A DNA stretch of 54,352 nucleotides, filler included, from Squatina squatina (Eukaryota): the NCBI GenBank assembly GCA_031763465.1. It is 2 parts of 2 records of this genome, joined end to end, with 100 filler letters (N's around TTAATTAATTAA, not from the genome) between each part and the next. Parts side by side here need not be neighbours in the genome. Positions count along the whole stretch, not along the records: positions 22,777 to 54,352 come from JARFOE010000120.1; 1 more part is not named here. One strand, given 5' to 3'. This document shows, one piece after another, positions 3,328 through 47,499 of this stretch. Below the pieces are notes generated by a model, which was not told the DNA's origin, made no database searches, and worked only from the letters and a program-made list of their open reading frames with translations. Position 1 is the first letter of the stretch; every line of letters starts with the position of its first letter. The position numbers and the translations under genes are program-made.

Positions 3328-4203
3328 TAGGATTCTTCCAACTACACATTTAATCCATTAAAAGAANNNNNNNNNNNNNNNNNNNNNNNNNNNNNNNNNN
3401 NNNNNNNNNNNNNNNNNNNNNNNNNNNNNNNNNNNNNNNNNNNNNNNNNNNNNNNNNNNNNNNNNNCCAAACGTTCCCATTCACGAGGTGGTTGGTGTCC
3501 TCCCTCCTGTCTCAGTACCAGGGTTGCATCGTGTGATATACAAAAACAAAAGGAATTCAGAAAGTTGGCAACATTTTCTATGCAAGAGTATTCTGGCAAG
3601 AAAATCCTTAACCTCAGCTGCAAACTTGGACAATCGATGCTGTGTTTCAGGAGGATTGCCATTCAAAGCGCATTCCAATTAAAGGAATAAGAGCTGCTTC
3701 ACGGGGAGTGCAGACCCGAATGTTCTCAAATAGCTGTGGAACTACCTGTATGCATGGGAAAGAAGTAATATTAAACACCCAACTGAAGGGAATCATTGTA
3801 GACCATGAGATAAAGGCCAGTGGCTGGTACTCAAGAGTACTGTAACTTTAGATCTGTTTTTGAGCGCATTTCTGCAGGCGCGTATGAAAAGGCTTTTGTC
3901 TGATTACTCAGTCTGTCTAGAGAAGCTGTACATGATATAACAAAGTCACTTCATTCACGTGGTAATCAAAAGGCTTAGCTCTTGAGAACTCTGTTTTCTA
4001 TCCAAAGCNNNNNNNNNNNNNNNNNNNNNNNNNNNNNNNNNNNNNNNNNNNNNNNNNNNNNNNNNNNNNNNNNNNNNNNNNNNNNNNNNNNNNNNNNNNN
4101 NNNNNNNNTGGTGATTTTGTTTTGTGTTAAGATGCAGAAAAGCCTCAAGGGCAAATAGTTAATTTTTTTTAAATGTTACTTACATTTAAAAAAAAAGTTT
4201 TAC

Positions 4204-4318
4204 CTTCTTTTAAAGTCCACTTGATCTCCCCAGTCCGTTTGCTGACAGCATGCAGGTTCCCATCGAGTGTGGATACAAAGAGCAGAGTTTCCGGGAGAGT
4301 CACTGTGCTGGCAGCACA
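4204..4318 (-). CDS. ERN1: IRE1 (ERN1/ERN2) exon 2, start of luminal domain
   Basis: ttgtaccAG|TGT...AAAGAAG|GTaaaa. Translates [38 protein letters not shown], near-identical to ERN1 [35 protein letters not shown]; ERN2 paralog not excluded. Confidence 0.88.
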
Positions 4319-5932: not shown

Positions 5933-6917
5933 AGTTTTGGCAGCACACAGCACATCCAAGTATTTATTTTTATTTTTATTTTTTTAAAAAAGTGCATGTC
6001 AGAGCCCAGGCGCAAGTGAATCAGGCCAGGCCAGGCCAGGATGATCTTCTTGGCGTTTCTGCACTTCCTCTTCATGCAGCAGAGCAAGCTGGGATTTGAT
6101 CTCGAAGAGTATAACACTAAGAACTACTGACATGAAGGGAGTTATATTCACACTGGCACGGAGGGGCGGTGGGGTTCGGGGTTGGGGGGAAAGAGTACTA
6201 ATCNNNNNNNNNNNNNNNNNNNNNNNNNNNNNNNNNNNNNNNNNNNNNNNNNNNNNNNNNNNNNNNNNNNNNNNNNNNNNNNNNNNNNNNNNNNNNNNNN
6301 NNNNNNNNNNNNNNNNNNNNNNNNNNNNNNNNNNNNNNNNNNNNNNNNNNNNNNNNNNNNNNNNNNNNNNNNNNNNNNNNNNNNNNNNNNNNNNNNNNNN
6401 NNNNNNNNNNNNNNNNNNNNNNNNNNNNNNNNNNNNNNNNNNNNNNNNNNNNNNNNNNNNNNNNNNNNNNNNNNNNNNNNNNNNNNNNNNNNNNNNNNNN
6501 NNNNNNNNNNNNNNNNNNNNNNNNNNNNNNNNNNNNNNNNNNNNNNNNNNNNNNNNNNNNNNNNNNNNNNNNNNNNNNNNNNNNNNNNNNNNNNNNNNNN
6601 NNNNNNNNNNNNNNNNNNNNNNNNNNNNNNNNNNNNNNNNNNNNNNNNNNNNNNNNNNNNNNNNNNNNNNNNNNNNNNNNNNNNNNNNNNNNNNNNNNNN
6701 NNNNNNNNNNNNNNNNNNNNNNNNNNNNNNNNNNNNNNNNNNNNNNNNNNNNNNNNNNNNNNNNNNNNNNNNNNNNNNNNNNNNNNNNNNNNNNNNNNNN
6801 NNNNNNNNNNNNNNNNNNNNNNNNNNNNNNNNNNNNNNNNNNNNNNNNNNNNNNNNNNNNNNNNNNNNNNNNNNNNNNNNNNNNNNNNNNNNNNNNNNNN
6901 NNNNNNNNNNNNNNNNN

Positions 6918-7060
6918 CAGGGCCTTGGCAATGCCTTTCCCCCGCTGGTCAAAGTCCACGGACATGCGGCGAAGTTCCACTGTGTTGTCCTCCTCGTTGC
7001 CTCTGGCAGCCACGATGCCCACAACATTCCCATCCAAAACTGCAACCCAGAAGCAGGAGC
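6918..7060 (-). CDS. NAT8L: N-acetylaspartate synthetase, last coding exon (partial, runs into gap)
   Basis: ttgtcacAG|GCTCC acceptor; GSCFWVAVLDGNVVGIVAARGNEEDNTVELRRMSVDFDQRGKGIAKAL matches NAT8L including the GNAT RGKGIA acetyl-CoA motif. Confidence 0.95.
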
Positions 7061-7560
7061 CTGTGACAAGAAGAACAGGTGTCTCAACATTTTGGGGATT
7101 GACAATTGGGTTTCTCTTGACAAGGGTAGATATCGACTTTGTGCGATTGTGTAAAAGATGTGAGGGNNNNNNNNNNGATGTAAACGGACTGTTTACACTA
7201 TCACACAAAATCAAAATCTACCACGACAACATTTCACTAATACCGACAATAAAAATATAGAAAAATCTTCAAGCATTAGTTCTTTATACTTGTGTCTCAA
7301 AATTCATAAAATCAACACATGATTAAACATGATAACTTTGAGAGGGGATGGTAGTGCACAGAAATCAATGCATAAGCTGGTAAAAACTGGGTTAAATATT
7401 TATCTCGGACAGTTGGCTGAGCGTCTCGCCCCTCCTCCAACCCCGTCCCCCACTNNNNNNNNNNNNNNNNNNNNNNNNNNNNNNNNNNNNNNNNNNNNNN
7501 NNNNNNNNNNNNNNNNNNNNNNNNNNNNNNNNNNNNNNNNNNNNNNNNNNNNNNTATCAT

Positions 7561-10113: not shown

Positions 10114-10200
10114 GCCGCGTTGAGTATTTTTGGGATGGTTGGAGGCCCACTACTCGGAATTTTCTGCCTGGGAATGTTTTTCCCCATGGCTAATTCTGCG
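10114..10200 (+). CDS. SLC5A6: SMVT exon (87 nt)
   Basis: aaatgtAG|GCC...TCTGCG|GTgagt; [29 protein letters not shown]. Confidence 0.95.
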
Positions 10201-10364
10201 GTGAGTTTTTGTTTTAAATACTGTTCCTTTCTGGTTTGGCAGTATGTTTATGTTGAGGTAAGTTCATCAGCTAACTTGGTAAGTTAAATTACTTGACTCA
10301 AAGGTTTAATTGGGAGGGGGTGTTGAGTAGATATCCTCCTGTTAATGCTGTGCTAATGTGAGTA

Positions 10365-18935: not shown

Positions 18936-19011
18936 AGACCCAAGAGTGATGTAGGGGGAGAAGGAAATACCCAAACCGAGCGCAAAGAAGCCGAGGTGCC
19001 CGTTCCAGAGT

Positions 19012-19303
19012 ATGACCGCGGTCTATGCCAATGGTGGCACCATGGTCAACCACCGCTACAGCCGCTGGAGCCGGCAGAACAGCGCAGAGGACTACCCGCG
19101 GGCAGAGGTCTACGAGGAGGGTGAGGATGGGCAGCCGCGCAGGCTGACCCCGCTGGAGAAGCTCTCCCACGAGATGGCGCATGATGAGCGGACCATCAAG
19201 GAGGTGACGCTGGGCAAACGGATCGGCTTCTACCGCGTGCGAGGCGAGATCGGCAGCGGCAACTTCTCGCAAGTCAAGCTTGGTGTCCACTCACTGCCGA
19301 AAG
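19012..19303 (+). CDS. NIM1K: Serine/threonine kinase NIM1, first coding exon
   Basis: MTAVYANGG...RLTPLEKL...EVTLGKRIGFYRVRGEIGSGNFSQVKLGVHSL with the kinase Gly-rich loop; phase-1 donor AAAG|GTagtg. Confidence 0.96.
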
Positions 19304-19309
19304 GTAGTG

Positions 19310-19623
19310 ACCAGGAGGGACCGGGGTCCGTGTCCAAGGGGAACCGGGGTCACGGACTGGGGGGTCAGGGACTGGGGGTCAGGGACCGAGGGGAACCGCG
19401 GTCACGGACTGGGGGTAAGGGACTGGGATCAGGGAGCGGGGTTCAGGGAGCGGGGGTCAGGGACCGGGGATCAGAGACCGAGGGGGACTGGGGTCAGGGA
19501 ATGGGGGTCAAGGACCAGGGTCCAGGGGTCAGGGTTGAGGGTCTGGGACCGGGGTCAGTGACTGAAGGGGAGCGGGGGTCAGGGAGCGGGGTCAGTGACC
19601 GAGGGGGACCGGGGCTCAGGGAC
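19310..19623. repeat. G-rich degenerate minisatellite (GGGGTCAGGGACC-like) in the NIM1K intron
   Basis: Many imperfect copies of ggggtcaggga(c/g). Confidence 0.85.
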
Positions 19624-20365
19624 TAATCTTGTTGTGCGAGGCCCCTTGGGCAAGAGTGACCATAATATGGTAGAATTCTTCATTAAGATGGAGAGTGACA
19701 NNNNNNNNNNNNNNNNNNNNNNNNNNNNNNNNNNNNNNNNNNNNNNNNNNNNNNNNNNNNNNNNNNNNNNNNNNNNNNNNNNNNNNNNNNNNNNNNNNNN
19801 TATGCTTGGTTTTACCAGCATAAGAGTTGTTAAAAATTTTTAATCAAAAAAATTAATGGTACATTATTTTAAATCATTCCCCGTAAGGTAAGTAATTTTA
19901 AAAGATTTTTTATTGAATTTCAATAAAGAGTCTTATTTATCTCCTTTTTATTAAATTTTACTGTTAGAATAGTTCTTTTTAAAATGTTTTGGGATGTGTT
20001 TGTGTTACTTTTCATCTTTCATTCATGTTTTGACAGTTCTCAGAACTGTCAAAAGCTTGAATGAAAGGTGCTCCGACCTGATTGTTTGGAGCCTCCCATG
20101 TGACCTTTCCAGCCTTTACACTGGACTTCCCCAGGAATCTACAGAGCCCCGCTCCGAAACTCCAACTCAGGGGTGCTGAATCTCGCACGGTCGCGTGAAT
20201 CGAGGACCGTCAGGTAAGTACGTAAATATTTTTTCCATCAGAGGCTCCCGCACACAGGAAGCCTCCGATCGCAATTTCAGGGCCACAGTGTCTGTATAAG
20301 GTCTGAGGATATATTTCACTTGTGAGAGATACATTGCCTACATAAGGTCGGAAATGCAGACTCAC

Positions 20366-20813
20366 CGTCCCAGGAGCTGGACTCCACCCAATTGACGGAG
20401 TTGAACAGAGCAGCGGTTCCGCCGTAGCAGGCGTTGGTGGTGTCGATGCCCTCAATGTCGGTGTTGCCGGACTCCTCGAAGAGCTGCATGAGGACGGTCT
20501 TCACCGACTTGGATTTGTCGATGATGGTCTCAGTGCCCACCTCCAGCCGCCCAATGCTCTCGTACGGCAGGCTATTCCTCTCCAGCAGCCGGTGCACGGC
20601 GGTCAGGCACAGAGAGTTAATGTCCTCGCGGTCGGAGCAGAAGCCCATCCTGGACTGGCCCAGGCCCACTGTGTACTTGCCCGCATCCACCCCATCGAAC
20701 TTCTCCAGCTCCGTCTGCTCCACGTACTGCGACGGGAAGTAGATCTCCATGGCAATGATACCCACATCCTTGGGCCAGCCAGCCTCAGCATTGACAGGAA
20801 GGGATCCAGGCAT
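20366..20813 (-). CDS. HMGCS1: Cytosolic HMG-CoA synthase, first coding exon
   Basis: [19 protein letters not shown]...catalytic [14 protein letters not shown]...SSSWDG; acceptor 10 nt before the ATG, donor G|GTgagt. No mitochondrial presequence, so HMGCS1 rather than HMGCS2. Confidence 0.97.
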
Positions 20814-22177
20814 CGTGGAAAGACTGCGGAGAGAGGAGGAACAAAAATAAATGTCGTGAGGAGTCTGNNNNNNNNNNNNNNNNNNNNNNNNNNNNNNNNN
20901 NNNNNNNNNNNNNNNNNNNNNNNNNNNNNNNNNNNNNNNNNNNNNNNNNNNNNNNNNNNNNNNNNNNTCAGCATGACCCTACCCTCTTGCCCCTTACCCC
21001 CGACACCCCCCCATTGCACCCGCTCACTGCGCCCCCTCCTCACCTCCCTCTGGGTCCCCCCTCTCCTCGCCTCCCCCGCCCCACCGATCGCGGAACCCCA
21101 CCCCATCACCCCTGCATCCCCGGAACTATTAATCAAACCTCAAACCTCAATCCTCTGTCCCTGGCCCTCCATGTACACCCGCTAGCGTGAGGCTGAGAAT
21201 AAGTGCGATGAGATATTACCTAAGGTTTTTGGTTGCTGTCTATTCCTGTTTTTACTGTTAATGCCTTTGTGTTCGATAAACATCGTTATTTTACCAACCA
21301 CCTGCTCTCAACCTAAACCTCACCCCAGTCTCAAATCTACATGACCGTGTGCAGTCTTCAGGAGTATTTTCTTCTGAAACAATCAAAGCAACGCTGGCAT
21401 TTGACCCCTGTGGTGTAACCTTAAAATTGAAGTGGTCAGGATATTTTTTTTGCAAGCCATTTAATTTATTGGACAGGCACAGAATATTCAAACTTCCAGC
21501 ACGTTGAAGATCTCGAGAAGCTGTAGGCTTTTTTCTTGTGTCGTGAGCCTTTGCTGAGTTTTTGTCCCAGTGTTGCCTCATCAGTGCTTTTCTTTCTCGA
21601 GCAGAACTATTGAAAACCAGGAGACTCTCAATACATTCCCAGAGTAGGAATTGGCATTGAATCTAAACAGGAGAGAGAGTTACAAGCCAAGGTTTAGAAA
21701 CAGCACAATTATTGACAGTGTCTGTAATTGGGCACTTCGCAGACATTGAATTACTGTGGAGTGCAGTGACTAGTTATTCAAGCACATGGGGCAACCAAAT
21801 TGTGCATAGGTAGAGCCCACAGACAGTAGTAGGGTGAGTGACCTGTTTTGGTGGTGGTGATTGAGGGAGAATGTTGGCCCAGGATATTAGGAGCAGGCTC
21901 TTGTTTGAATGGGCCATTCATCAAATTAATGTTTTGGGGATCCTACAAAAAGTCACCGCATTTCAAAGCCATTCTATGATAGCCTTTGAGAGCAGTGGTG
22001 TGATGCTCCATCAATGCATTATTTGTTTTCTCTAGCCAAGTCCCATTTTAATTAAAGATATTTATTTGCACTTCTAAGTGTGGGGATATTTTTCCTTCCT
22101 CTGCAGTGTTCTTGAACTGTTTCTGTTGCCTCGCCCACTGTTCCCTGTCCCGCTCACTGTCCTGCTCTGTTTTTCAG

Positions 22178-24364: not shown

Positions 24365-24503
24365 CACTTGAATCTTCAAATCAATGGATACTCGGACATG
24401 ATAAGGTACATCATATTCTCTGATGTCAATTATGTTTTCCATTTGATCAGAAATTTTCTTGGATGTTCCTTCCTCTTCGGTCACACTGCCCCCAGCCAAG
24501 GCA
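24365..24503 (-). CDS. POLE: POLE exon 7 equivalent
   Basis: [46 protein letters not shown]|GTgagc. Confidence 0.96.
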
Positions 24504-24732
24504 CTACCATTACAAACAAATATCACTAAACATAGAGCAAGAATCGCCACAAGATCCTATTCAATGCAGGAATAGCTTTACAGAAACTGATCTATAGACC
24601 AACGAGGCTTCAGCAATTTATTAATGCATAATNNNNNNNNNNNNNNNNNNNNNNNNNNNNNNNNNNNNNNNNNNNNNNNNNNNNNNNNNNNNNNNNNNNN
24701 NNNNNNNNNNNNNNNNNNNNNNNNNNNNNNNN

Positions 24733-24751
24733 GTTGGAAAGGTAAAGCAAC
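24733..24751 (-). CDS. POLE: POLE exon 4 equivalent (5' part, truncated by gap)
   Basis: tttttcAG|GTTGCTTTACCTTTCCAAC = VALPFQ (human VALPYKP). Confidence 0.8.
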
Positions 24752-25368
24752 CTGAAAAAAGAAAACTGAATGAATAATAACAATAAAGATAGTGACAAAA
24801 TTTAAATAACTATAAAACAAAGATAAATAGAAACAATGGCGAGAAATGAAAAGTTAAAAATATCTTTGTTCTTCACCAACTTTTCACATTGTTGAATTGA
24901 TTCTTTGTTATTTTAATGTCAAAATTGATCCAAAATACAGTAACAGCTATTCACTGGTGCATAACATTCACAAGAATGGCTAATCGTGTTAGCTTACTCA
25001 AGAAAGCTAGTGTTTATCCTGTGTTTTTGACTGTCTATTTAATATGGCACTTGGGGACACTAGGTCATAGAGAGAAGATTTTGAGCATGGCTGGGAAAAT
25101 TAAAATAATTTAGTTAGAGATCACAGGACCTGAGGTTATACTGAAGGTTTCAAACATGGGACAAGAAACACCTGACATAAACTGAAATTAAAATTTGAAG
25201 CGGAATTATCTACTTCGGTTTCCCACTGTATCAAAACTTATACTTACATCATATTGCAGTGTCAACTGTGCCTAGAAATCCAAATTCACAACATATAGAA
25301 GCCCAGTTACTCTTATGTATGTTGTCAGCCCGTTCCAGGATGATGAATACATCCATAACACTGCAAAC

Positions 25369-25417
25369 TAGTAACTAGACACAAATAGCAATTGAAGCCA
25401 TTTGTGTCTAGTTACTA
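25369..25417. repeat. Perfect 18-bp inverted repeat with 13-nt spacer in a POLE intron
   Basis: TAGTAACTAGACACAAAT (25369-25386) and ATTTGTGTCTAGTTACTA (25400-25417). Confidence 0.95.
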
Positions 25418-25772
25418 AAGAAGTTGCGGTGCAGGTCAGCTACAATCTAACTGAATGGCAGAACATAGTCGAGGAGATGAATGGTCTGTTTCTCTTCCTG
25501 TGTAGCAAATCATGCTATACCCCGAGTATACATCAATATATCTACACACAAAAATGTTGAACTACATGGTGTAAATGATAAAAGAGGACTTATTTTATTA
25601 TCAAATATAAAATGATCCAACTGCAATAATTAAGCTATATAAAAAAACATGAATTAACAGCTGTACATGAAACCCTTATACAGTTTGACTATTTGGCTTT
25701 TATCAGATGGAGTTAGAGATGGCTCATGGCGGACTAGGACATGCAAGTGTGCTTGCATACATTGTTACAGAC

Positions 25773-25853
25773 CTTAAACCTGCTCCCGTCCTCCTCAACA
25801 AAATAATAATCCACAACACTGATCATTCTCTTGTCTTCATCCAAGATTTCTGC
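25773..25853 (-). CDS. POLE: POLE exon 3 equivalent
   Basis: 81-nt exon; [27 protein letters not shown]. Confidence 0.95.
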
Positions 25854-26107
25854 CTGTGAATTGAAATTAATATACATCAGTACAGGAAAAAGAGTGGCAT
25901 TTAGCAAATGGACAGGGTTGTTTTTGATATACTAACTTTATACTGATGGATACAAATTATTTTATTCTCTGAAAAATTACTCAGTCACTGTAATCTACAT
26001 AAACAACATTGTTTGTGCCATTTGCAGCTCTACCAGCACAATGCCAAGGGTTATAGTGTAGCATTTATTTCAACTGGAACCAAGGTAAACTCAGAATAGC
26101 AACTAAC

Positions 26108-26243
26108 TGGGTGCATGTTGATAAGCCAGCCAGTACTCTCTCCTGGATCTTTGAGGCGCTCAAATCCAAACCGTGCATCCATCTCATCTGTCCACTGACT
26201 GCGCTCCAGGCGCTTGAGTGCAGGAAGGGAGGAGCCATCGTCA
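26108..26243 (-). CDS. POLE: POLE exon 2 equivalent
   Basis: [45 protein letters not shown]|GTtagt. Confidence 0.96.
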
Positions 26244-26587
26244 CTGAGAACAAAAACACAAGATATATATTTATATCATCCGTTAACAGCCATTTCATCA
26301 CGTAACACAAGAAAGAAGCTGGATCCTTACTTGTTCCTANNNNNNNNNNNNNNNNNNNNNNNNNNNNNNNNNNNNNNNNNNNNNNNNNNNNNNNNNNNNN
26401 NNNNNNNNNNNNNNNNNNNNNNNNNNNNNNNNNNNNNNNTGGACAGCTGTCAAGACTATCAGAAACCATTCAAAGTAACGGCAACCAACGTCTGAAAATT
26501 TAGTATTGTTGCCCGCTAGTGATCAACTCTGGGTAGTGCTGCACATTACCATTTTGTGTGACTCAGGTAATTTGGTCTTTCTTTGTC

Positions 26588-28182: not shown

Positions 28183-28302
28183 GGGAAGAACTTGAAGGCA
28201 CTAAAGGATAAGATGCAGACTGGATACTGGACAGCACTGAAAATGAACTGGAAAGTTTGGACAATCTTCCAGTATATTAACATTAATTATGTTCCTGCTC
28301 AG
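28183..28302 (+). CDS. PXMP2: Peroxisomal membrane protein 2 (Mpv17/PMP22 family) exon
   Basis: 120-nt AG/GT exon; GKNLKALKDKMQTGYWTALKMNWKVWTIFQYININYVPAQ resembles human GFWPALRMNWRVWTPLQFININYVPLK; divergent from POLE as in human. Confidence 0.93.
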
Positions 28303-28616
28303 GTAAAGTATGTTTGCTGGTTGTAGAGGTGAATATGATTGTTTAATGATTGGTACTATGTCCATAGCCTGGGCTATTGAGCTCTGCCAATACATTTAAG
28401 GAACAACAGCCATTTTCAAGGTTCACCTGTGTAATATTGTAAAATGCCCAGCATGAATCAACATTGTTGCTCACAGGAAAGGTAATCCGTTAGCATGAAC
28501 TCCATATACACCTAGGNNNNNNNNNNNNNNNNNNNNNNNNNNNNNNNNNNNNNNNNNNNNNNNNNNNNNNNNNNNNNNNNNNNNNNNNNNNNNNNNNNNN
28601 NNNNNNNNNNNNNNNN

Positions 28617-29710: not shown

Positions 29711-29761
29711 ATGGAGAAAAGGCAGAATCGGCTCTCTTTGGACCTTCTCACATCGTGACAG
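29711..29761 (+). CDS. Candidate 51-nt symmetric micro-exon of an unidentified gene
   Basis: gactttcAG|ATGG...GACAG|GTatat; open in phase 1 as (D)GEKAESALFGPSHIVT. Confidence 0.35.
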
Positions 29762-30457: not shown

Positions 30458-30508
30458 TTTCACAATTTGCGAAGTTTGATCTCATTGGATCTTGCCACCA
30501 TCTGCAAG
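30458..30508 (+). CDS. Candidate 51-nt symmetric micro-exon of an unidentified gene
   Basis: tttttttcAG|TTTC...GCAAG|GTattg; open in phase 1 as (V)SQFAKFDLIGSCHHLQ and in phase 0 as FHNLRSLISLDLATICK. Confidence 0.35.
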
Positions 30509-31073: not shown

Positions 31074-32221
31074 NNNNNNNNNNNNNNNNNNNNNNNNNNN
31101 NNNNNNNNNNNNNNNNNNNNNNNNNNNNNNNNNNNNNNNNNNNNNNNNNNNNNNNNNNNNNNNNNNNNNNNNNCTGCACATCCTTACTCACAGCAACTTA
31201 CCTTGCACCTCCACCCATCCCTCTTTCCTGGTCACAAACAATCTGGTTCAGCCACAGGCAGTAACCAGAAAGAGGGATGGAATCTGATGAAGTTGAAAGG
31301 GATTTGGGGTGAAAATAGATTCAGTGCTTAACATCTCAAATCACTGTGAAACAGCAATAAACAAGTAAATAGAATTCCAAAATATATTCTAGATCAGTGT
31401 CATAAATTGGACTATGTCATGCAAAAACTATAGTGCTCTGGTACTGTGTTCCATTTTAGTTACTAAGACGGAAAGCAAGCATTTAAGCAATGGAGACAGT
31501 GCTGAGAAGAGCCATTAGGCTGAACTCTGGAGTTAAAGAATTAAGTTTTGGCAAAATCTGGACAGACTGGAGCTCTTTAGCCTTGAAACAAGGCAACTGA
31601 TTATAGATCTTATCAAAGTTTGCAAGATATTAAACAGTTAAGAGAAGGTAAATCCAGAGTACTATTACAGGTTAAGCAAAAGCATTAGAACAAGGTTATA
31701 GCCTAAAATTGGTGAGAGCACAGATCAGGAAAAACTTCTTCATATAACAAGTGATCAGTAGTTTTCCATATACAGATGAGGTAAAAACCTCAGATTTACT
31801 CATGCTACAGTTAGATATTTCATAGGTGGTGGGGGACTATAAATATTTTTCTGATGCATGAGCTAAAATGGGCAAATGGCTCCTTCAACTGAATTTTCAT
31901 TATGATATTGTGAATGACTTGCAAAAAAGAGTTAACGGTGAGTCTCAGAGAAAGGCTCAAGAGGGGAAAGGGACAATCACTCACACCAATCAGGACAGAA
32001 ATTTCTTAAAGGGACAGCATCACAGATGATTTTCCTCCCACCCCCCTTCCCTTGGGATATGAATGAATGTGGAAGAATTGAACACTAAGAAAGTCAAGAA
32101 AATTGTAAGTTTTAATATTCTTGCTGAATTATGGATTCTTCAAGCAAATTGTATATTATATTTCATGTAAATGATTTACATTTCTCCCAACTTCATTTAA
32201 TTATTGTACTTTTATTTGCAG

Positions 32222-32679
32222 AAATGTTTAAAAAGTTGAAGAGAGGTGTGAACTTTGTTCAAAGACACAAAAAGGAAATTATTTGTTGTCTTAAAATGAC
32301 TCAGCCAATCTGGTCACATTTGCGATCCAAAAAGGTCATCAGCAAAGATGAAGAACATGAAGTTGCCTCTCACATTACAGAAACTCAACAAAATAGAGCC
32401 CTTGTTCAACTTATCATGAATAGGGGAGAAGAAGCAGAAGAAGGACTGTACAATGCTCTGCTAGAAAATGATCCTTACTTTGTGAACGATGTCGAATGTA
32501 ATTATTCAGACAAATTATGCAACAACTGTATAAAACGATGGAGTTTAGTTTCTTTACAGGGAGATAGCTTATCTGTACAAGAAATGAATAACAGAACTGG
32601 AAGAATGTGGCTTGCTCATTTAGTGTCTATATTTAGTGGCATGATTGCAGGTTATCTGCTTGGCTACAATTTTTCATAG
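32222..32679 (+). CDS. Terminal exon/ORF encoding a CARD domain plus a C-terminal transmembrane segment
   Basis: ttttatttgcAG|AA ATG acceptor. FVQRHKKEII...PIWSHL..KKVISKDEE..V....T..QQNRALVQLIMNRGEEA..GLYNALLENDPYFVNDV fits the CARD consensus; hydrophobic WLAHLVSIFSGMIAGYLLGY ends three residues before the stop. Confidence 0.8.
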
Positions 32680-41290: not shown

Positions 41291-41520
41291 CTATCAGTTC
41301 ATTTGATTTTGTGGCATTAACATGGACANNNNNNNNNNNNNNNNNNNNNNNNNNNNNNNNNNNNNNNNNNNNNNNNNNNNNNNNNNNNNNNNNNNNNNNN
41401 NNNNNNNNNNNNNNNNNNNNNNNNNNNNTGAAAAACAATTAATTTTCTCTCTTTTTGCAGGACTTAACTCTTCAGTATTACGTCGTGCAGGATGGTGGAT
41501 GCCTAAAATAGAAGACTGTC

Positions 41521-43469
41521 ATGGCAACGTGGGTGGAGGGGAAACCTGCCCCACCGCCAAAGAATACCTTGAGTGATGTGAATGATATTGTAAACGAGAC
41601 TAAGTCTCCGTGGAACCGCATAAGCCCTCTTTCAGACGCAAGCAATAAAGCACTTGAACCAACACCTCCAATTTCTCCCCATATATTTGATAATGACAGC
41701 AAACTGAATTATAATTTGCGTTCAGTAACCAAGCCCGTAACAGGACCAAAACCAAGACTTTCTCCACGACCATTTACTTTGGAAAAGCCATCAGTGCCAT
41801 ACACGTCACCAGGGACCACACAAGCACCTCTCACCGCCCCTAAGCCTATAAGTGTTGCTTCTAAGATAACACCATCAGGGAAGCTGACTGTAGGCACAGG
41901 CGATGCAAAAGCAAGCTTCAGACACACAGAGTCAAAACATGCACCAAGTGGGACTGTTTTGTCAGTATTGTCTTCCTTTGCCCAAAAGTCTTCAATAGAA
42001 TCTGACAATACCAGTTGGATTAAGGCAGGTGAATCTCAGGACGGTGAGAAGTTGCTCAACTTGCATTCAACACCAAATCATTGCAATGCCGCAGTTTCCT
42101 CTTCAACCGTGGCATTGAATTCTGAAAGAGTGACAGAAGAGAAGTGTGAACATTCCGAAACAAAACCAACTACATTGGTTATTTCAGAAACTTCTGTTCA
42201 GAAGTTAAAATCAAAGAAGTCCAGTGAAGGTGATAAAGATATTGGGAAATGGACAAGCAGGGACAGCTCACCGGATCAAGAGTTGCAAGGGACTATGAAA
42301 CCTTTTGTGTTGTCTAAGCCATCCATTCATTCCAGGAAATACAGCCCAAGTGCCACCCAAGGGTTCGGGACATCAAAACCTGCATCGCTCTTGAGAATTA
42401 CTTCATTGGGCATTTTAGGAAAATGGGACCAGGTTACAGAGGAAGGTAAAGACAAAACAGACAAAGAAAAGGATAGTGCTGAAAGCCCACCTTCGCCCAG
42501 GGTTCAGTTAAGAAAATCTAGGCTATTATCTGCTTGGCTTCCTGGAACCACGGTTGACCAGAAATCAGAGTCGTCTTCAGAAACCACAATAAATCCCGAT
42601 GAAAAGGCTTCTACCCCTGACAAACCTTGGCTTAAGAAACCCAGGCCTTTATCAATGGGCCTCACAGCCAAGTTTGAAGCCTCTGCTCACAAGAGAAATG
42701 TTCCCCCAACAGAGGATAGTAAAGAAAATGTCCCCATTATTAAAGCCGCTAGCGCTCTGCCCTCGGAGACCAGACGCGATGCAACAGTTCAACAGGAAGA
42801 GTCTGCAGCAGAGGCAGTAAAGTGTTGGTCTCCAACTTCTCCAAATGACGACGAAGACGAGACAAAAAGTTACTTGTTTGTTGCTAAAAAGAAATTCAAC
42901 AACAGCCCAAAGATGGATATCAGTAAGAAAGATGTCAAGACGCCCACATTGTATGAGAGAGATAATAAAGAGAAAATTACTTCCCCAGAAAGAAAGATTC
43001 CATGCAAAAATGACCCAAATGACACCAAAACCACTGCCAGTCAAGGGGAAGAGGAAAAGGGAGACAGAATACCGACTACCTCATTAAAAACTGAAAAAGA
43101 GAAATTGGGAACTGACCAAGAGCGACTTAAGAGTTGGGCACATAAGGAATTGGATAAAGAATGTTCTGATCGGGAGCGAGCTTCAGATGACGAAAACCCT
43201 TTAGGCTCCAATGATCGAGGAAATAAAGTGCCAGTTTCTGGCGGAATAATCAAGAGACGCATCAGCCTCCTCTTAGATTCCGCCAGTAGTAGCACAGCAA
43301 AAACGGATTCTCCACAGGCTACCGCTGTGAAGGAAAAGATAAACATTCGTGTCAGACAACGAATCCAAAGCTTTAGTTCAGGGGACAAGGATTCCAACTG
43401 GGAACAACTCCAAACCTCCCAAAGACGACTGTACCAATTGAGGCCTCTGTCTTCAGATATGACAAAAAG
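41521..43469 (+). CDS. KIAA1671: KIAA1671 first large coding exon (exon begins at 41461)
   Basis: 1949-nt open frame; MATWVE start, PRLSPRPF, TPDKPWLKKPRPLSMGLTAKFE, IKRRISL, VRQRI and RPLSSDMTKR match KIAA1671 conserved blocks; donor AAAG|GTgtgt. Confidence 0.88.
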
Positions 43470-44379
43470 GTGTGTTGAGTTTTAATTCTTTTAAATGTTT
43501 AGTTTTAAATGAAGACTTTTTTTTTAAATTGCACCTCGTAGCATTCACTTGTTTTCCAGTCAAGAGGCTTGCCACGTCTGAATAAATACTTGAATGGCTG
43601 TGGTAGTAACTGGAATATTCCTGTCAAGGAAAAACAAAAGCAGTACAAGAGAAGATATCAGAGTGTAATTGCCATAATATGCCTACTCTCATCAGGGAGG
43701 GCATCTGATGTTCAGTTAACAATATGCAAGTACCATACTTATGAATTACCACATCTTTTCATCACATCTTTGTGCTTAAGGTGACTTCGACAAGATATAT
43801 CAATGTGGCTCATGAGTGATTTGACAATCATTCACTCACTGCCTTTTCCTCAGGTTGAGAGCGGGAATTTGCTGTGTTGAGAAATCCCAGCCGCAAACAC
43901 ATGCTCTACTGCTCCGTGGCGGGTGTACCAAAGTGGTGCCACCACAACAGTGTTAGTTTAAAAAGAAACCGTGAAAAATATATATTTGTCCTTAACAATA
44001 GAGTACCAAAATATTCAGTACATTTCATTATTGCAATGTGCTAATCATTATGGCAAGCTCTTCACTTTAGTTGTACATTTGTTGGAGTGTGGAAAGTAAA
44101 TTGTTAGCTTAGCTTAAGAATACTTCCTTATTACTGGCATTTAGGAGTGAGGCTACAACATAAAACATTGGAATTATAAATACTACAAAACCGTGAGCCA
44201 CAAGCCTAGAAGTTTGAATTTGTTCCGACAGTGCCATCATAACGGTGTCTTGTGTTGATTTACTAATAGGTGATAGGATATGGTTTTGGCCTGTGACTTG
44301 ACTGGCGAGGTGATGAGTATTTTACCTCTGCGACTATGGGGAGAAGTGCTTTCCTTTTGGAAGTGAAAACTGAGCATGT

Positions 44380-44610
44380 AAGCATAGCAAGGGGAGTATG
44401 TCATTCAGCCTCAAACCTGTTCCACATTTAGATCCTGGCTCATCTGTATCTTAATGCCATTTACCCACCTTGATTCCATATCATAGAACCATAGAATGGT
44501 TACAGCATAGAAGAAGGCCATTCGGCCCGTCGAGCTCGCGCCGGCTCTCTGCAAGAGCACCACAGTTTGCCCCACTCCCCCGCCCTTTCCCTGTAGCCCT
44601 GCAAATTAGT
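44380..44610 (-). mobile_element. CR1 3'-end fragments
   Basis: catagaatggttacagcatagaagaaggccattcggcccgtcgag. Confidence 0.78.
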
Positions 44611-44752
44611 TTATTTTGGATGCTTCTCCAATTATCTTGAGTCTGCCTCCANNNNNNNNNNNNNNNNNNNNNNNNNNNNNNNNNNNNNNNNNNNNNNNNN
44701 NNNNNNNNNNNNNNNNNNNNNNNNNNNNNNNNNNNNNNNNNNNNNNNNNNNG

Positions 44753-45906
44753 AATCAACCACCTCCTGCTGAGAACAGCTCTATTCTGGAGACACCATTG
44801 ACTGCACCGAATTCTGAAATCAACGTAGCTGAGGTGCTGAACGCTGTTCGAAATCAGCAATCTCATATTGAGCTCATGCTAACCACAGCCAAAGCGGATT
44901 CCAATAAAGTTGGAAAGAAACAATTGAAAGCGACTCAGCTCAACTCCTACAGTAGCACAGAAAGATTAACTATTTCAAAAGGTAGCTCCAGAGATTTTGG
45001 ATCGAGAAAATACAATGAAGCTACCAGCCTGGAACTACTGCCCTCTGCTGGGTGCATTGATGTGAAAGATTCAAAGGGCAGTGTTGACGCAGAAGCGGGA
45101 AAAAAAGCAAAAGCGTTGCTGCAAGGCGATGGAACGGTAGAATTTTGTGGGAAGGTCCTTCCAAAGGAAGGGAGGGACAAGAGAAGGAACACAGTTTCTT
45201 TGGAGCCCAGCTCTACAATCTTTACAAGAGATCAGGTCTCTGATTGTTTAACTGAGACTAGTTATGTCAAACACAGATATACATCTGAGCCATTGTCCGC
45301 CTCTGTCAGTCGGCCAGTTGATAGATCTAAAGATGACTTCTTTGAGGAGTACACTAAAAATTATCCCAAAATGTCCACCCCAGAAAAACCTAAAACAACT
45401 CTGTTGTCTGAAGCGTTTCTTGATATGCCGTGGACGAATGGAGAGGGTGCTGCTTCAGAGGAAAGCCACGTAACACCAACTGTGAAACAGTCTAGAATGG
45501 CGAACACTGAGAAGTCAAGAAAGAGCAGGGACACTTTGATCTGTAACAAGCACAATGTAGTAGATGTTGATGCTTTGATGGCAGATTACAGAAAAGAAAC
45601 ATCGAAAAGAAAAAGTGAAGAATCAAAGACTTCTCATTACCATGACAAGAAGGATAGCTACCATTCCAATACTCGTCAAAAAGATTATGAAGAACAGTGC
45701 ACCCAAAAGATGATAAAATCTGCTGATCAGGGCTTTGGAATATCATCCTCTTCAGGTAAAAGTCTAGATACTTCTGATATGCTTAATAAAAAAAGCTTGC
45801 ACTGCAATCGTGTCCTTGACCTAGATGCACTGATGGCCGATTATGCAAAGGGAATATCAAAACCCGGAGACCTTGTACAAAAGACCATCAGTTCAAAGAT
45901 AGCTGA
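44753..45906 (+). CDS. KIAA1671: Part of a second large KIAA1671 exon (open across the whole contig)
   Basis: Uninterrupted ~385-codon frame with repeated VVDVDALMADY / VLDLDALMADY motifs resembling KIAA1671; same strand, downstream of the first exon. Confidence 0.75.
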
Positions 45907-47499
45907 NNNNNNNNNNNNNNNNNNNNNNNNNNNNNNNNNNNNNNNNNNNNNNNNNNNNNNNNNNNNNNNNNNNNNNNNNNNNNNNNNNNNNNNNNNNNNN
46001 NNNNNNGCGCGAATATTTTGAGCAATTTTCAGGTAATTGTCGGGACACCAGGATGTTTCCTCAAACCGGGACTGTCCCAGCAAAACCAGGACGTCTGGTC
46101 ACCCTACATACAGGGGGCCTGGAAATTGGTCCACACAGCACCCGTTAGAAGTAAGACAACAGCAACAACAACTTGGATTTATATAGCTCCTTTAACGTAA
46201 TAAAAACATCCCAAGACACCAATACATTGCGCACCGTGCTAGTGTTTTGTAATGAATGCCTGTGCTACTGAGTGAAAGAGTAACAATGATATTAAGAAAA
46301 GGGCGATACTTAGTGGGTAGTGCCGATGCCTCCAAATTTTCTCTCTCCACTCATTCTCCGACGTTGAGTAAAACATGTTTCTGGCCCATTTCTCAGAACT
46401 CTGAACAGCTCTTTGACAATGGGAGACCCCCTTGCTAGTATACCCTCACTCCCAATGATTGTAAGCAGGCTGAAGCATATTATGCACATCCAGATGTTAG
46501 AAATTGGCAGAACACACAAACAGCTATCCTTGCTGGCAGTCCACGTCCCTCCTTGTGTGAGTACATTGCAGAGCAGCACGCAAGCAAGTTTCTGGTGGCA
46601 GTGCTGAATCCGAGCCCTTCTCCCAACAATAGTGCGTCGGGGAAAGCGTGCCCTTTAGCTTTTCTGCAACAATAGTGTGCAGAAAAGGGTGAAATGTTGG
46701 CCCCATCCTTTGCATGCTTCTACCCTAAGAGTGCTGCGTGCACAATCTTGATTAGCGCCATGTGATCTATGCCGCAGTAGTAAAATTATGTATGCAAAGC
46801 AACAGATGCTTATTTTGGCACTTCTCCTGAAACAACAGAACCCCATCCCCATCTGTTCCTTATGGACATGCGGGCGCCTCCATTCACTCTCTCTGTAACC
46901 TTCATTCAAGAAGCTTTAACTACACTTCCAAATAGTGCCAACCTTTGCTACACTGCTTGCAACTGGATTTCTAAGGGACCATTAAAATGGGGAGAGTTTC
47001 CTCATTATTGTTGGCAGAAAAGAATTTGTTCAGCCAAACAAGAAAAGTACTCCCCTTTAATACTCCTCAAGAACTCTTTTTTTGCTGGATCTGCTGACTG
47101 CCCCTCAGCCAATTACCCTAAAATTAGGGGGAAAAGCTGGCTTTGCAGAATTTGGTGAGGACAACTCTCACCACTGCTGGCTGAAGCCTCACCCGCTGCC
47201 ATTGGGTCTCTTGTATTGTAGCGTTAGACCCTAGTAGACATGCAAAACATTTTACATGAATATCTGATGCAATTTTACAACTTGTTCACTGGAATTGAAT
47301 TTTTTCCTACGAAACCCAATTTGAAAGGAAACTCCATGTGTGAAGGCACTCCAAGAGCCTTTGGATTTTTTTTTTGTTATTCAATTTTACATTACCATTT
47401 TAATATGCTGTTTTTGTTTTTTTAAATATTCACAATTTTTCATTTACTCATTACAGTAAGTTTAGTTTTAAATATATCAAAGTCGATTAGCGTGCGCAA

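Follow-up and report, generated by a model that had tools for sequence, protein, structure and literature searches.

A CARD8 paralogue of sharks and rays with a predicted C-terminal membrane anchor and a degenerate FIIND cleavage site

The segment 32222..32679 of the analysed stretch of Squatina squatina DNA (the window: 54,352 nucleotides, assembly GCA_031763465.1) is, by its sequence, the last exon (phase 1) of a CARD8 paralogue found in cartilaginous fishes. We somewhat favour the reading that the gene encodes a tail-anchored, non-cleaving member of this family, which, tethered to a membrane, would be a brake on inflammasome CARDs or a scaffold for them. An earlier note on the window had recognised a CARD followed by a hydrophobic tail; the FIIND that precedes both in the orthologues was missed there, and it decides the mechanism.

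Last exon, gene structure and orthologues

The frame at 32224-32679 was found to be intact, as the earlier note had read it, and encodes 151 aa followed by TAG. A polypyrimidine tract with AG at 32220-32221 places the exon start at 32222 and sets phase 1. The following elements of the gene were recognised in the window:

29711..29761, plus strand: upstream coding exon of 51 nt, phase 1-1, belonging to this gene's long linker (AG/GT bounded; Narcine P0003 747-763, tblastn E 0.16)
30458..30508, plus strand: upstream coding exon of 51 nt, phase 1-1 (AG/GT bounded; P0003 HSP 776-807, tblastn E 7e-5)
31074..31173, no strand: assembly gap of 100 N, inferred place of the TQT-linker and FIIND (ZU5-UPA) exons that are missing
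32203..32221, plus strand: splice acceptor, polypyrimidine tract and CAG (sequence; alignment of contig X4 record 26 from 32225)
32222..32679, plus strand: last coding exon, phase 1, with CARD, linker, tail and stop (72-77% identity to the C-termini of P0003, P0004 and P0005)

Both 51-nt exons match the Narcine linker in the correct order. The exon at 30458..30508 was the top of 593 candidate exon frames (score 79), and that at 29711..29761 was second with a score of 53, only slightly above background (next score 49); the latter is weak by itself and is backed by its strand, order, and phase. No FIIND match was found anywhere in the window, including a Pfam scan of 114 window frames. The window (1-54352) contains 38 gaps, mostly of 100 N. 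Its scaffold strings together contigs of 1-2 kb, and isolated exons from many genes are found across it; reference-guided scaffolding probably lies behind this assembly. Distances and gene completeness in the window are therefore unreliable, and the missing FIIND exons of this shark most likely fall in assembly gaps. Neighbouring exons with database or by-eye identification were:

20316-20978, minus strand: HMG-CoA synthase exon (Pfam)
24365-26275, minus strand: POLE exons (PDB match E 3e-16 for 24365-24523; the remainder recognised by eye)
28183-28323, plus strand: Mpv17/PMP22-family (PXMP2-family) exon, just upstream of the CARD gene

The POLE and PXMP2-family exons stand head to head upstream of the CARD exon, as do human POLE and PXMP2. 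From their translations we take other exons to be IRE1/ERN-like (4184-4318, minus strand), NAT8L-like (6198-7217, minus strand), SLC5A8-like (10114-10278, plus strand), NIM1K-like (18955-19311, plus strand), and KIAA1671-like (41512-46021, plus strand). The earlier note had set the CARD exon between PXMP2 and KIAA1671-like neighbours; the first of these is indeed present upstream as a PXMP2-family exon, but the KIAA1671 label received no confirmation in the Pfam scan of the 114 frames.

A search among proteins of similar length gave one match among 8 candidates, an unnamed 150-aa Logan protein (an unannotated gene call), which starts at the equivalent of the Met at 32224. Among 2389 longer proteins, three matches were obtained, from Narcine (1596 aa), Scyliorhinus torazame (432 aa), and Hemitrygon (283 aa); a cluster look-up added S. 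canicula (843 aa), and a search that started from the FIIND brought in pieces from skate, ray, and chimaera (8 matches among 4227 candidates). The search of 1.84 billion representatives yielded 97 matches at E<=0.001, only P0004 spanning all 151 residues. Since P0009 escaped the word-based homolog searches, nothing follows from a lack of matches in other shark species. The Narcine model P0003 has two FIINDs, then CARD and tail; the Scyliorhinus models P0004 and P0102 are FIIND-CARD-tail, and the Hemitrygon model P0005 is UPA-CARD-tail. In all four annotated shark and ray orthologues the UPA directly precedes the CARD, with a whole FIIND in three, and the same linker and tail follow. After the CARD, about 60 residues (61-66) ending in the hydrophobic tail were present in 6/6 elasmobranch orthologues. 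The closest other single-CARD match, P0009, is a chimaera FIIND-CARD model that ends at the CARD and has no start Met; by these sequences the tail is shown for sharks and rays only. In databases the orthologues are labelled CARD8-like, NLRP1a-like or uncharacterised, names without any hint of an anchor. At its start (1-89) the Narcine model P0003 carries a piece of retroelement integrase, which is probably an artefact of gene prediction.

In a CARD tree of 29 rows, the CARD from the window grouped with the five elasmobranch orthologues and P0009 (98/97). The FIIND tree, of 22 rows, gave the orthologue FIIND a clade to itself (100/99), from which the canonical chimaera CARD8-like P0018 was separate; both trees are midpoint-rooted and do not include human CARD8, NLRP1, MAVS, or CARD19.

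Contigs from four runs (three studies) come from relatives and not from Squatina squatina, and their RNA status is a software guess. Contig X4 record 26, probably RNA, aligns from 32225 and extends 99 letters upstream; 30 of these letters, translated by eye, give LWEILVRPD, with which the UPA exon ends, so that in this relative a UPA exon is spliced onto the same acceptor. Thus, of the two possibilities raised in the earlier note, a standalone protein and the phase-1 last exon of a longer protein, the second has been borne out. That the main product is a standalone CARD-TM protein of 151 aa from ATG 32224 is very improbable, although the Met is kept in 6/6 protein orthologues and the Logan protein begins there: UPA or FIIND lies upstream in four annotated orthologues, X4 has Leu (by eye) at the supposed start, the Logan protein is an unannotated call, and coding exons of the long form are present upstream within the window. 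The CCAAT box (31986) and donor-like GTs (31938 and 32105) cited in favour of a standalone gene do exist as letters, but the only upstream exon with an ATG that ends at the 32105 donor would be spliced to the last exon out of frame. A short isoform from ATG 32224 may exist beside the long form.

The earlier note had asked whether transcripts splice out before the tail. Contigs from all four runs cross from CARD to linker without a joint, three of the four reach the tail, and two (X2 record 14 and X3 record 19) pass the stop into the 3' flank. No contig covered 31724-32218 or the exon at 29711..29761, to which no weight is given. A donor-like GTAATT at 32498-32503 lies exactly at the CARD end, where the canonical paralogues stop, which suggests that the last exon was extended beyond an old stop and thereby gained the tail. 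Removal of the tail through this GT as the main form was rejected: the site is not conserved in the catsharks, is absent in orthologues with Phe at that position, and is read through by four contigs.

CARD, linker and predicted tail anchor

The last exon is divided as follows:

32251..32493, plus strand: CARD domain, residues 10-90, of the CARD8/NLRP1/ASC class (Pfam PF00619, E 1.3e-15; PDB; Foldseek)
32497..32559, plus strand: conserved Cys linker, residues 92-112, predicted helix of low confidence (mean identity 0.79; 12/21 columns invariant)
32560..32607, plus strand: variable polar spacer, residues 113-128 (mean identity 0.40; 1/16 columns invariant)
32608..32667, plus strand: predicted tail anchor W129-Y148 (uncharged in 6/6 orthologues; helix in both models at low pLDDT)
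32668..32679, plus strand: uncharged C-terminal end, NFS and stop (frame; contigs X2 record 14 and X3 record 19)

All motifs quoted in the earlier note as a CARD signature are present, and the Pfam match reached 57.6 bits against a cut-off of 23.9. AlphaFold, with a 46-sequence alignment, placed a six-helix bundle of high pLDDT at residues 7-92, and two further helices at low confidence (100-116 and 126-147). The top Foldseek match was the CARD8-CARD filament 6xkj (rmsd 0.8 Å, TM-score 0.93), and zebrafish ASC, CARD8, and NLRP1 CARDs were the best of 33 PDB sequence matches, in agreement with the class proposed earlier; ESM Atlas matches were all <=0.77 and fell into generic CARD clusters. The CARD has a mean pairwise identity of 0.83 among six orthologues, higher than any other large region. 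Equivalents of CARD8 E523, D525, Y527, K509, and D511 are retained in it; R464, D473, and D477 are lost, and the charges of E487 and R495 are swapped. This residue map was made by eye from a structure-hit alignment of about 22% identity onto the residues of PMC7794386 and is weak; the pattern would fit a signalling CARD as well as a decoy.

The CARD followed by a single membrane helix is a layout in common with MAVS and CARD19, yet the probability that the gene is a divergent orthologue of either is negligible, as the earlier note had also held. CARD_2 (PF16739) was not among the two Pfam families matched at E<=1, and neither MAVS nor BinCARD occurred among the 33 PDB sequence matches or the listed Foldseek rows to rank 50; moreover, a FIIND lies upstream and the CARD is C-terminal, not N-terminal. 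Both MAVS and CARD19 (BinCARD-2) hold a CARD on the cytosolic face of an organelle through one membrane helix (PMC13032619 and PMC8997538), but they belong to another CARD class, have the CARD at the N-terminus, and have no FIIND. In addition, targeting of MAVS depends on a charged tail, whereas the orthologue tail has zero charge, and the helix of CARD19 is central rather than terminal. The likeness is, on our analysis, an analogy only.

The linker of about 40 aa noted earlier is 37 aa long (residues 92-128) and has three Cys; its CxxC (residues 99-102, 32518-32529) is invariant in the orthologues. An invariant CPC is also found just before the CARD-proximal FIIND of the orthologues, and in chimaera, tortoise, and bird the canonical CARD8-like proteins carry a CxxC ahead of their FIIND. 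The CxxC/CPC is a possible metal, redox or acylation site. Of the polar part, the NNRTGR basic residues pointed out earlier are present in this shark but are not conserved as such among the orthologues.

The last 20 hydrophobic residues, W129-Y148, end three residues (NFS) before the stop, as had been noted, and form a single conserved hydrophobic stretch of about 20 residues, predicted helical, near the C-terminus. Mean pairwise identity over six orthologues was 0.68 for the tail and 0.85 for residues 138-151 vs. 0.40 for the preceding spacer; conservation in other sharks, on which the earlier note had made its claim depend, is therefore seen. G139, G143, and G147 are invariant, and position 132 is His, Asn or Gln. 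The segment has zero charge in 6/6 orthologues with zero charge behind it, lies 3-8 residues from the protein end, and is marked at its ends by Trp and Tyr/His. Its GRAVY is 1.31-1.62, its hydrophobic moment 0.58-0.74, and its biological-scale sums +1.6 to +2.6. As a chance control, 17/233 other window frames of at least 60 aa have a 19-mer with KD >=1.5 in the last 40 residues, so the claim is carried by conservation and not by hydrophobicity alone. A comparable C-terminus was found in 0/110 other retrieved proteins, which agrees with the lineage-specific C-terminal anchor suggested in the earlier note. Tail pLDDT is <65, the tail peptide gave 0 PDB matches at E<=10, and a homodimer prediction (alignment not used) scored 0.07. 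The glycines and the polar residue 132 resemble the layout of the BNIP3 transmembrane dimer motif.

The tail probably inserts into a membrane. It is improbable that it instead forms a helix packed on the CARD or lying on a membrane or lipid-droplet surface, which the moderate hydrophobicity, the hydrophobic moment, the low pLDDT, and the higher KD of beta-strand stretches inside the FIIND would allow; 20 uncharged C-terminal residues in 6/6, preceded by a variable polar spacer and bounded by Trp and Tyr/His, speak against it, and the arrangement of W129-Y148 is the usual tail-anchor layout. Mean tail charge is 0.21 for ER and 1.12 for mitochondria, and mitochondrial tails are less hydrophobic (PMC5450235). 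By these figures the zero charge of the tail would favour ER and its low hydrophobicity mitochondria.

CARD-proximal FIIND and N-terminal architecture

Cleavage of CARD8 requires S297 and H270, and F296 is buried (PMC3210808). The FIIND exons of this shark are missing from its assembly, and the register of the site was taken from the alignment of P0004 with the CARD8 structure. In the CARD-proximal FIIND the site reads SL/A in Narcine, PL/S in two catsharks, PL/G in Rhinoraja, and PL/T in two chimaera models, i.e., the S297 equivalent is Ala, Ser, Ser, Thr, Thr or Gly in the six models. The F296 equivalent is Leu in 6/6, and that of H270 is Cys in four and His in two; F/S was found in none of the six, and neither was Ser together with His. 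In the canonical controls (chimaera, tortoise, and bird), SF/S and His are kept in 3/3. The domain as a whole is 58-77% identical across shark, rays, and chimaera, and the DPP9-contact strand of CARD8 (V277, L278, and E279) aligns to V-L-E in P0004. A site so degenerate in a domain yet so similar across species suggests that the FIIND has likely been retained for its fold and binding surface and not for proteolysis. From these residues, the CARD-proximal FIIND probably does not self-cleave. Ser is kept in both catsharks and Thr with His in one chimaera model; slow cleavage may occur.

The orthologues share with human CARD8 (7jkq and 6xkj) a disordered N-terminal region, ZU5-UPA, and a C-terminal CARD; P0004 matches 7jkq across FIIND and CARD (E 6e-38), and CARD8 gives the best fold match of the window CARD. 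ZU5-UPA was found directly N-terminal of the CARD in the orthologues and at the splice junction of the relative. They differ from human CARD8 in the 61-66 additional residues after the CARD, in not having SF/S and H270 together, and, in ray models, in an added ubiquitin-like domain (UBL) and second FIIND. Hence, by two tested features, the cleavage residues and a CARD at the free C-terminus of a soluble protein (here followed by about 60 hydrophobic-tailed residues), the sequences place the gene as of the CARD8 kind but not a canonical cleaving CARD8. NLRP1 (rat 7crw and human 6x6c) likewise ends in FIIND-CARD, P0004 has its best sequence match in rat NLRP1 (E 6e-40), and one orthologue is named 'NLRP1a-like' by NCBI; the orthologues differ from NLRP1 by the tail anchor and degenerate cleavage site and by having no NACHT, LRR or PYD, none of which was found in models P0003, P0004, P0005, P0102, and P0113-P0116 (models perhaps incomplete). 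The CARD8-like proteins of tortoise (P0023), bird (P0027), and chimaera (P0018) have CARDs about 40% identical to that of the window, but they keep SF/S and His and end 1-4 residues past the CARD. The tortoise and bird proteins share a UBL head with the ray models, and P0018 does not have it.

Two ray models, P0003 and P0115, have the UBL and a first FIIND upstream and an acidic linker to the second FIIND. Such acidic linkers of rays contain 4-7 TQT/VQT motifs (P0003 920-1093, P0114 7-254, and P0115 337-461); TQT is the usual LC8 anchor (PMC12057147), and the linker is a possible multivalent LC8 (DYNLL1) binding region. The first FIIND of Narcine keeps F/S, and its catalytic His is Tyr (one sequence). 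It groups with chimaera P0018 (91/92); the UBL-FIIND1 part may thus be a fused neighbouring gene in the two ray models. An N-terminal UBL occurs in CARD8-like proteins of tortoise, birds, and rays (P0023, P0027, P0039, P0003, and P0115) and is a possible built-in degron for functional degradation. Other FIIND-CARD proteins (P0006, P0007, P0042, P0077, and P0099) have up to 11 tandem CARDs, or TRIM or dynamin-like N-termini, and P0077 also has two FIINDs.

Proposed function and its meaning

In the brake or scaffold that we favour, the conserved hydrophobic tail would anchor the FIIND-CARD end to an organelle membrane and the uncut FIIND would bind DPP8/9. It would capture the freed UPA-CARD of the canonical CARD8-like paralogue, and the captured UPA-CARD, or pro-caspase-1, would be held at the membrane; we regard this mechanism as evenly balanced. 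Human CARD8 offers a precedent for such capture: its uncleavable form S297A can bind DPP9, take up free UPA-CARD, and protect cells that UPA-CARD would otherwise kill (bioRxiv 2021.01.13.426575; PMC11760013). The standalone CARD-TM adaptor or decoy of the earlier note gives way here to the FIIND-CARD end of a longer protein.

A membrane-tethered activating sensor, in which anchored FIIND-CARD clusters in the membrane and nucleates caspase-1 filaments, is the main rival but an unlikely one. Its trigger would be delivery of the N-terminus to the proteasome, brought about by the UBL and FIIND1 or by cleavage of the disordered linker through a pathogen protease. Dimerisation would come from TQT repeats of the LC8 type and from the tail's glycine-lined face. 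The UBL-FIIND1-linker-FIIND2 order of P0003 and P0115, the 4-7 TQT/VQT motifs of ray linkers, the invariant tail glycines, and a conserved CARD with equivalents of E523, D525, and Y527 are consistent with it, E523 and Y527 being modelled caspase-1 contacts (PMC7794386). With F/S retained in FIIND1, an upstream cut in the Narcine protein could activate it; however, the catalytic His of that FIIND is replaced by Tyr (one sequence), and the domain may belong to a neighbouring gene, given its grouping with the separate chimaera CARD8-like gene. Moreover, an uncut ZU5 remains joined to UPA-CARD, which is the inhibited state in CARD8. We hold it doubtful that the protein is a CARD8-type sensor of cartilaginous fish that never releases its CARD and, tail-anchored and dimerised by LC8 and glycines, nucleates caspase-1 filaments on an organelle surface; if true, NLRP1/CARD8 parts would here be put together in a MAVS-like geometry.

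The literature searched, which leaves out most subscription papers, describes no FIIND-CARD with a membrane anchor. CARD8/NLRP1-like proteins occur in all clades but tunicate and lamprey in a survey that included great white shark, and 'transmembrane' is absent from the available main text of that paper (PMC11258412); likewise, 'shark' does not occur in the accessible part of a mammalian phylogenomic survey (PMC10249858).

CARD8 and NLRP1 signal through self-cleavage and release of a soluble UPA-CARD, and the shark and ray paralogue is predicted to break both rules. If it is a brake, it would be a natural, dedicated counterpart of the engineered S297A FIIND that damps CARD8 in human cells, and the DPP9 checkpoint could be split into a gene of its own and put on a membrane. 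If it is a sensor, FIIND proteins could signal through membrane clustering.
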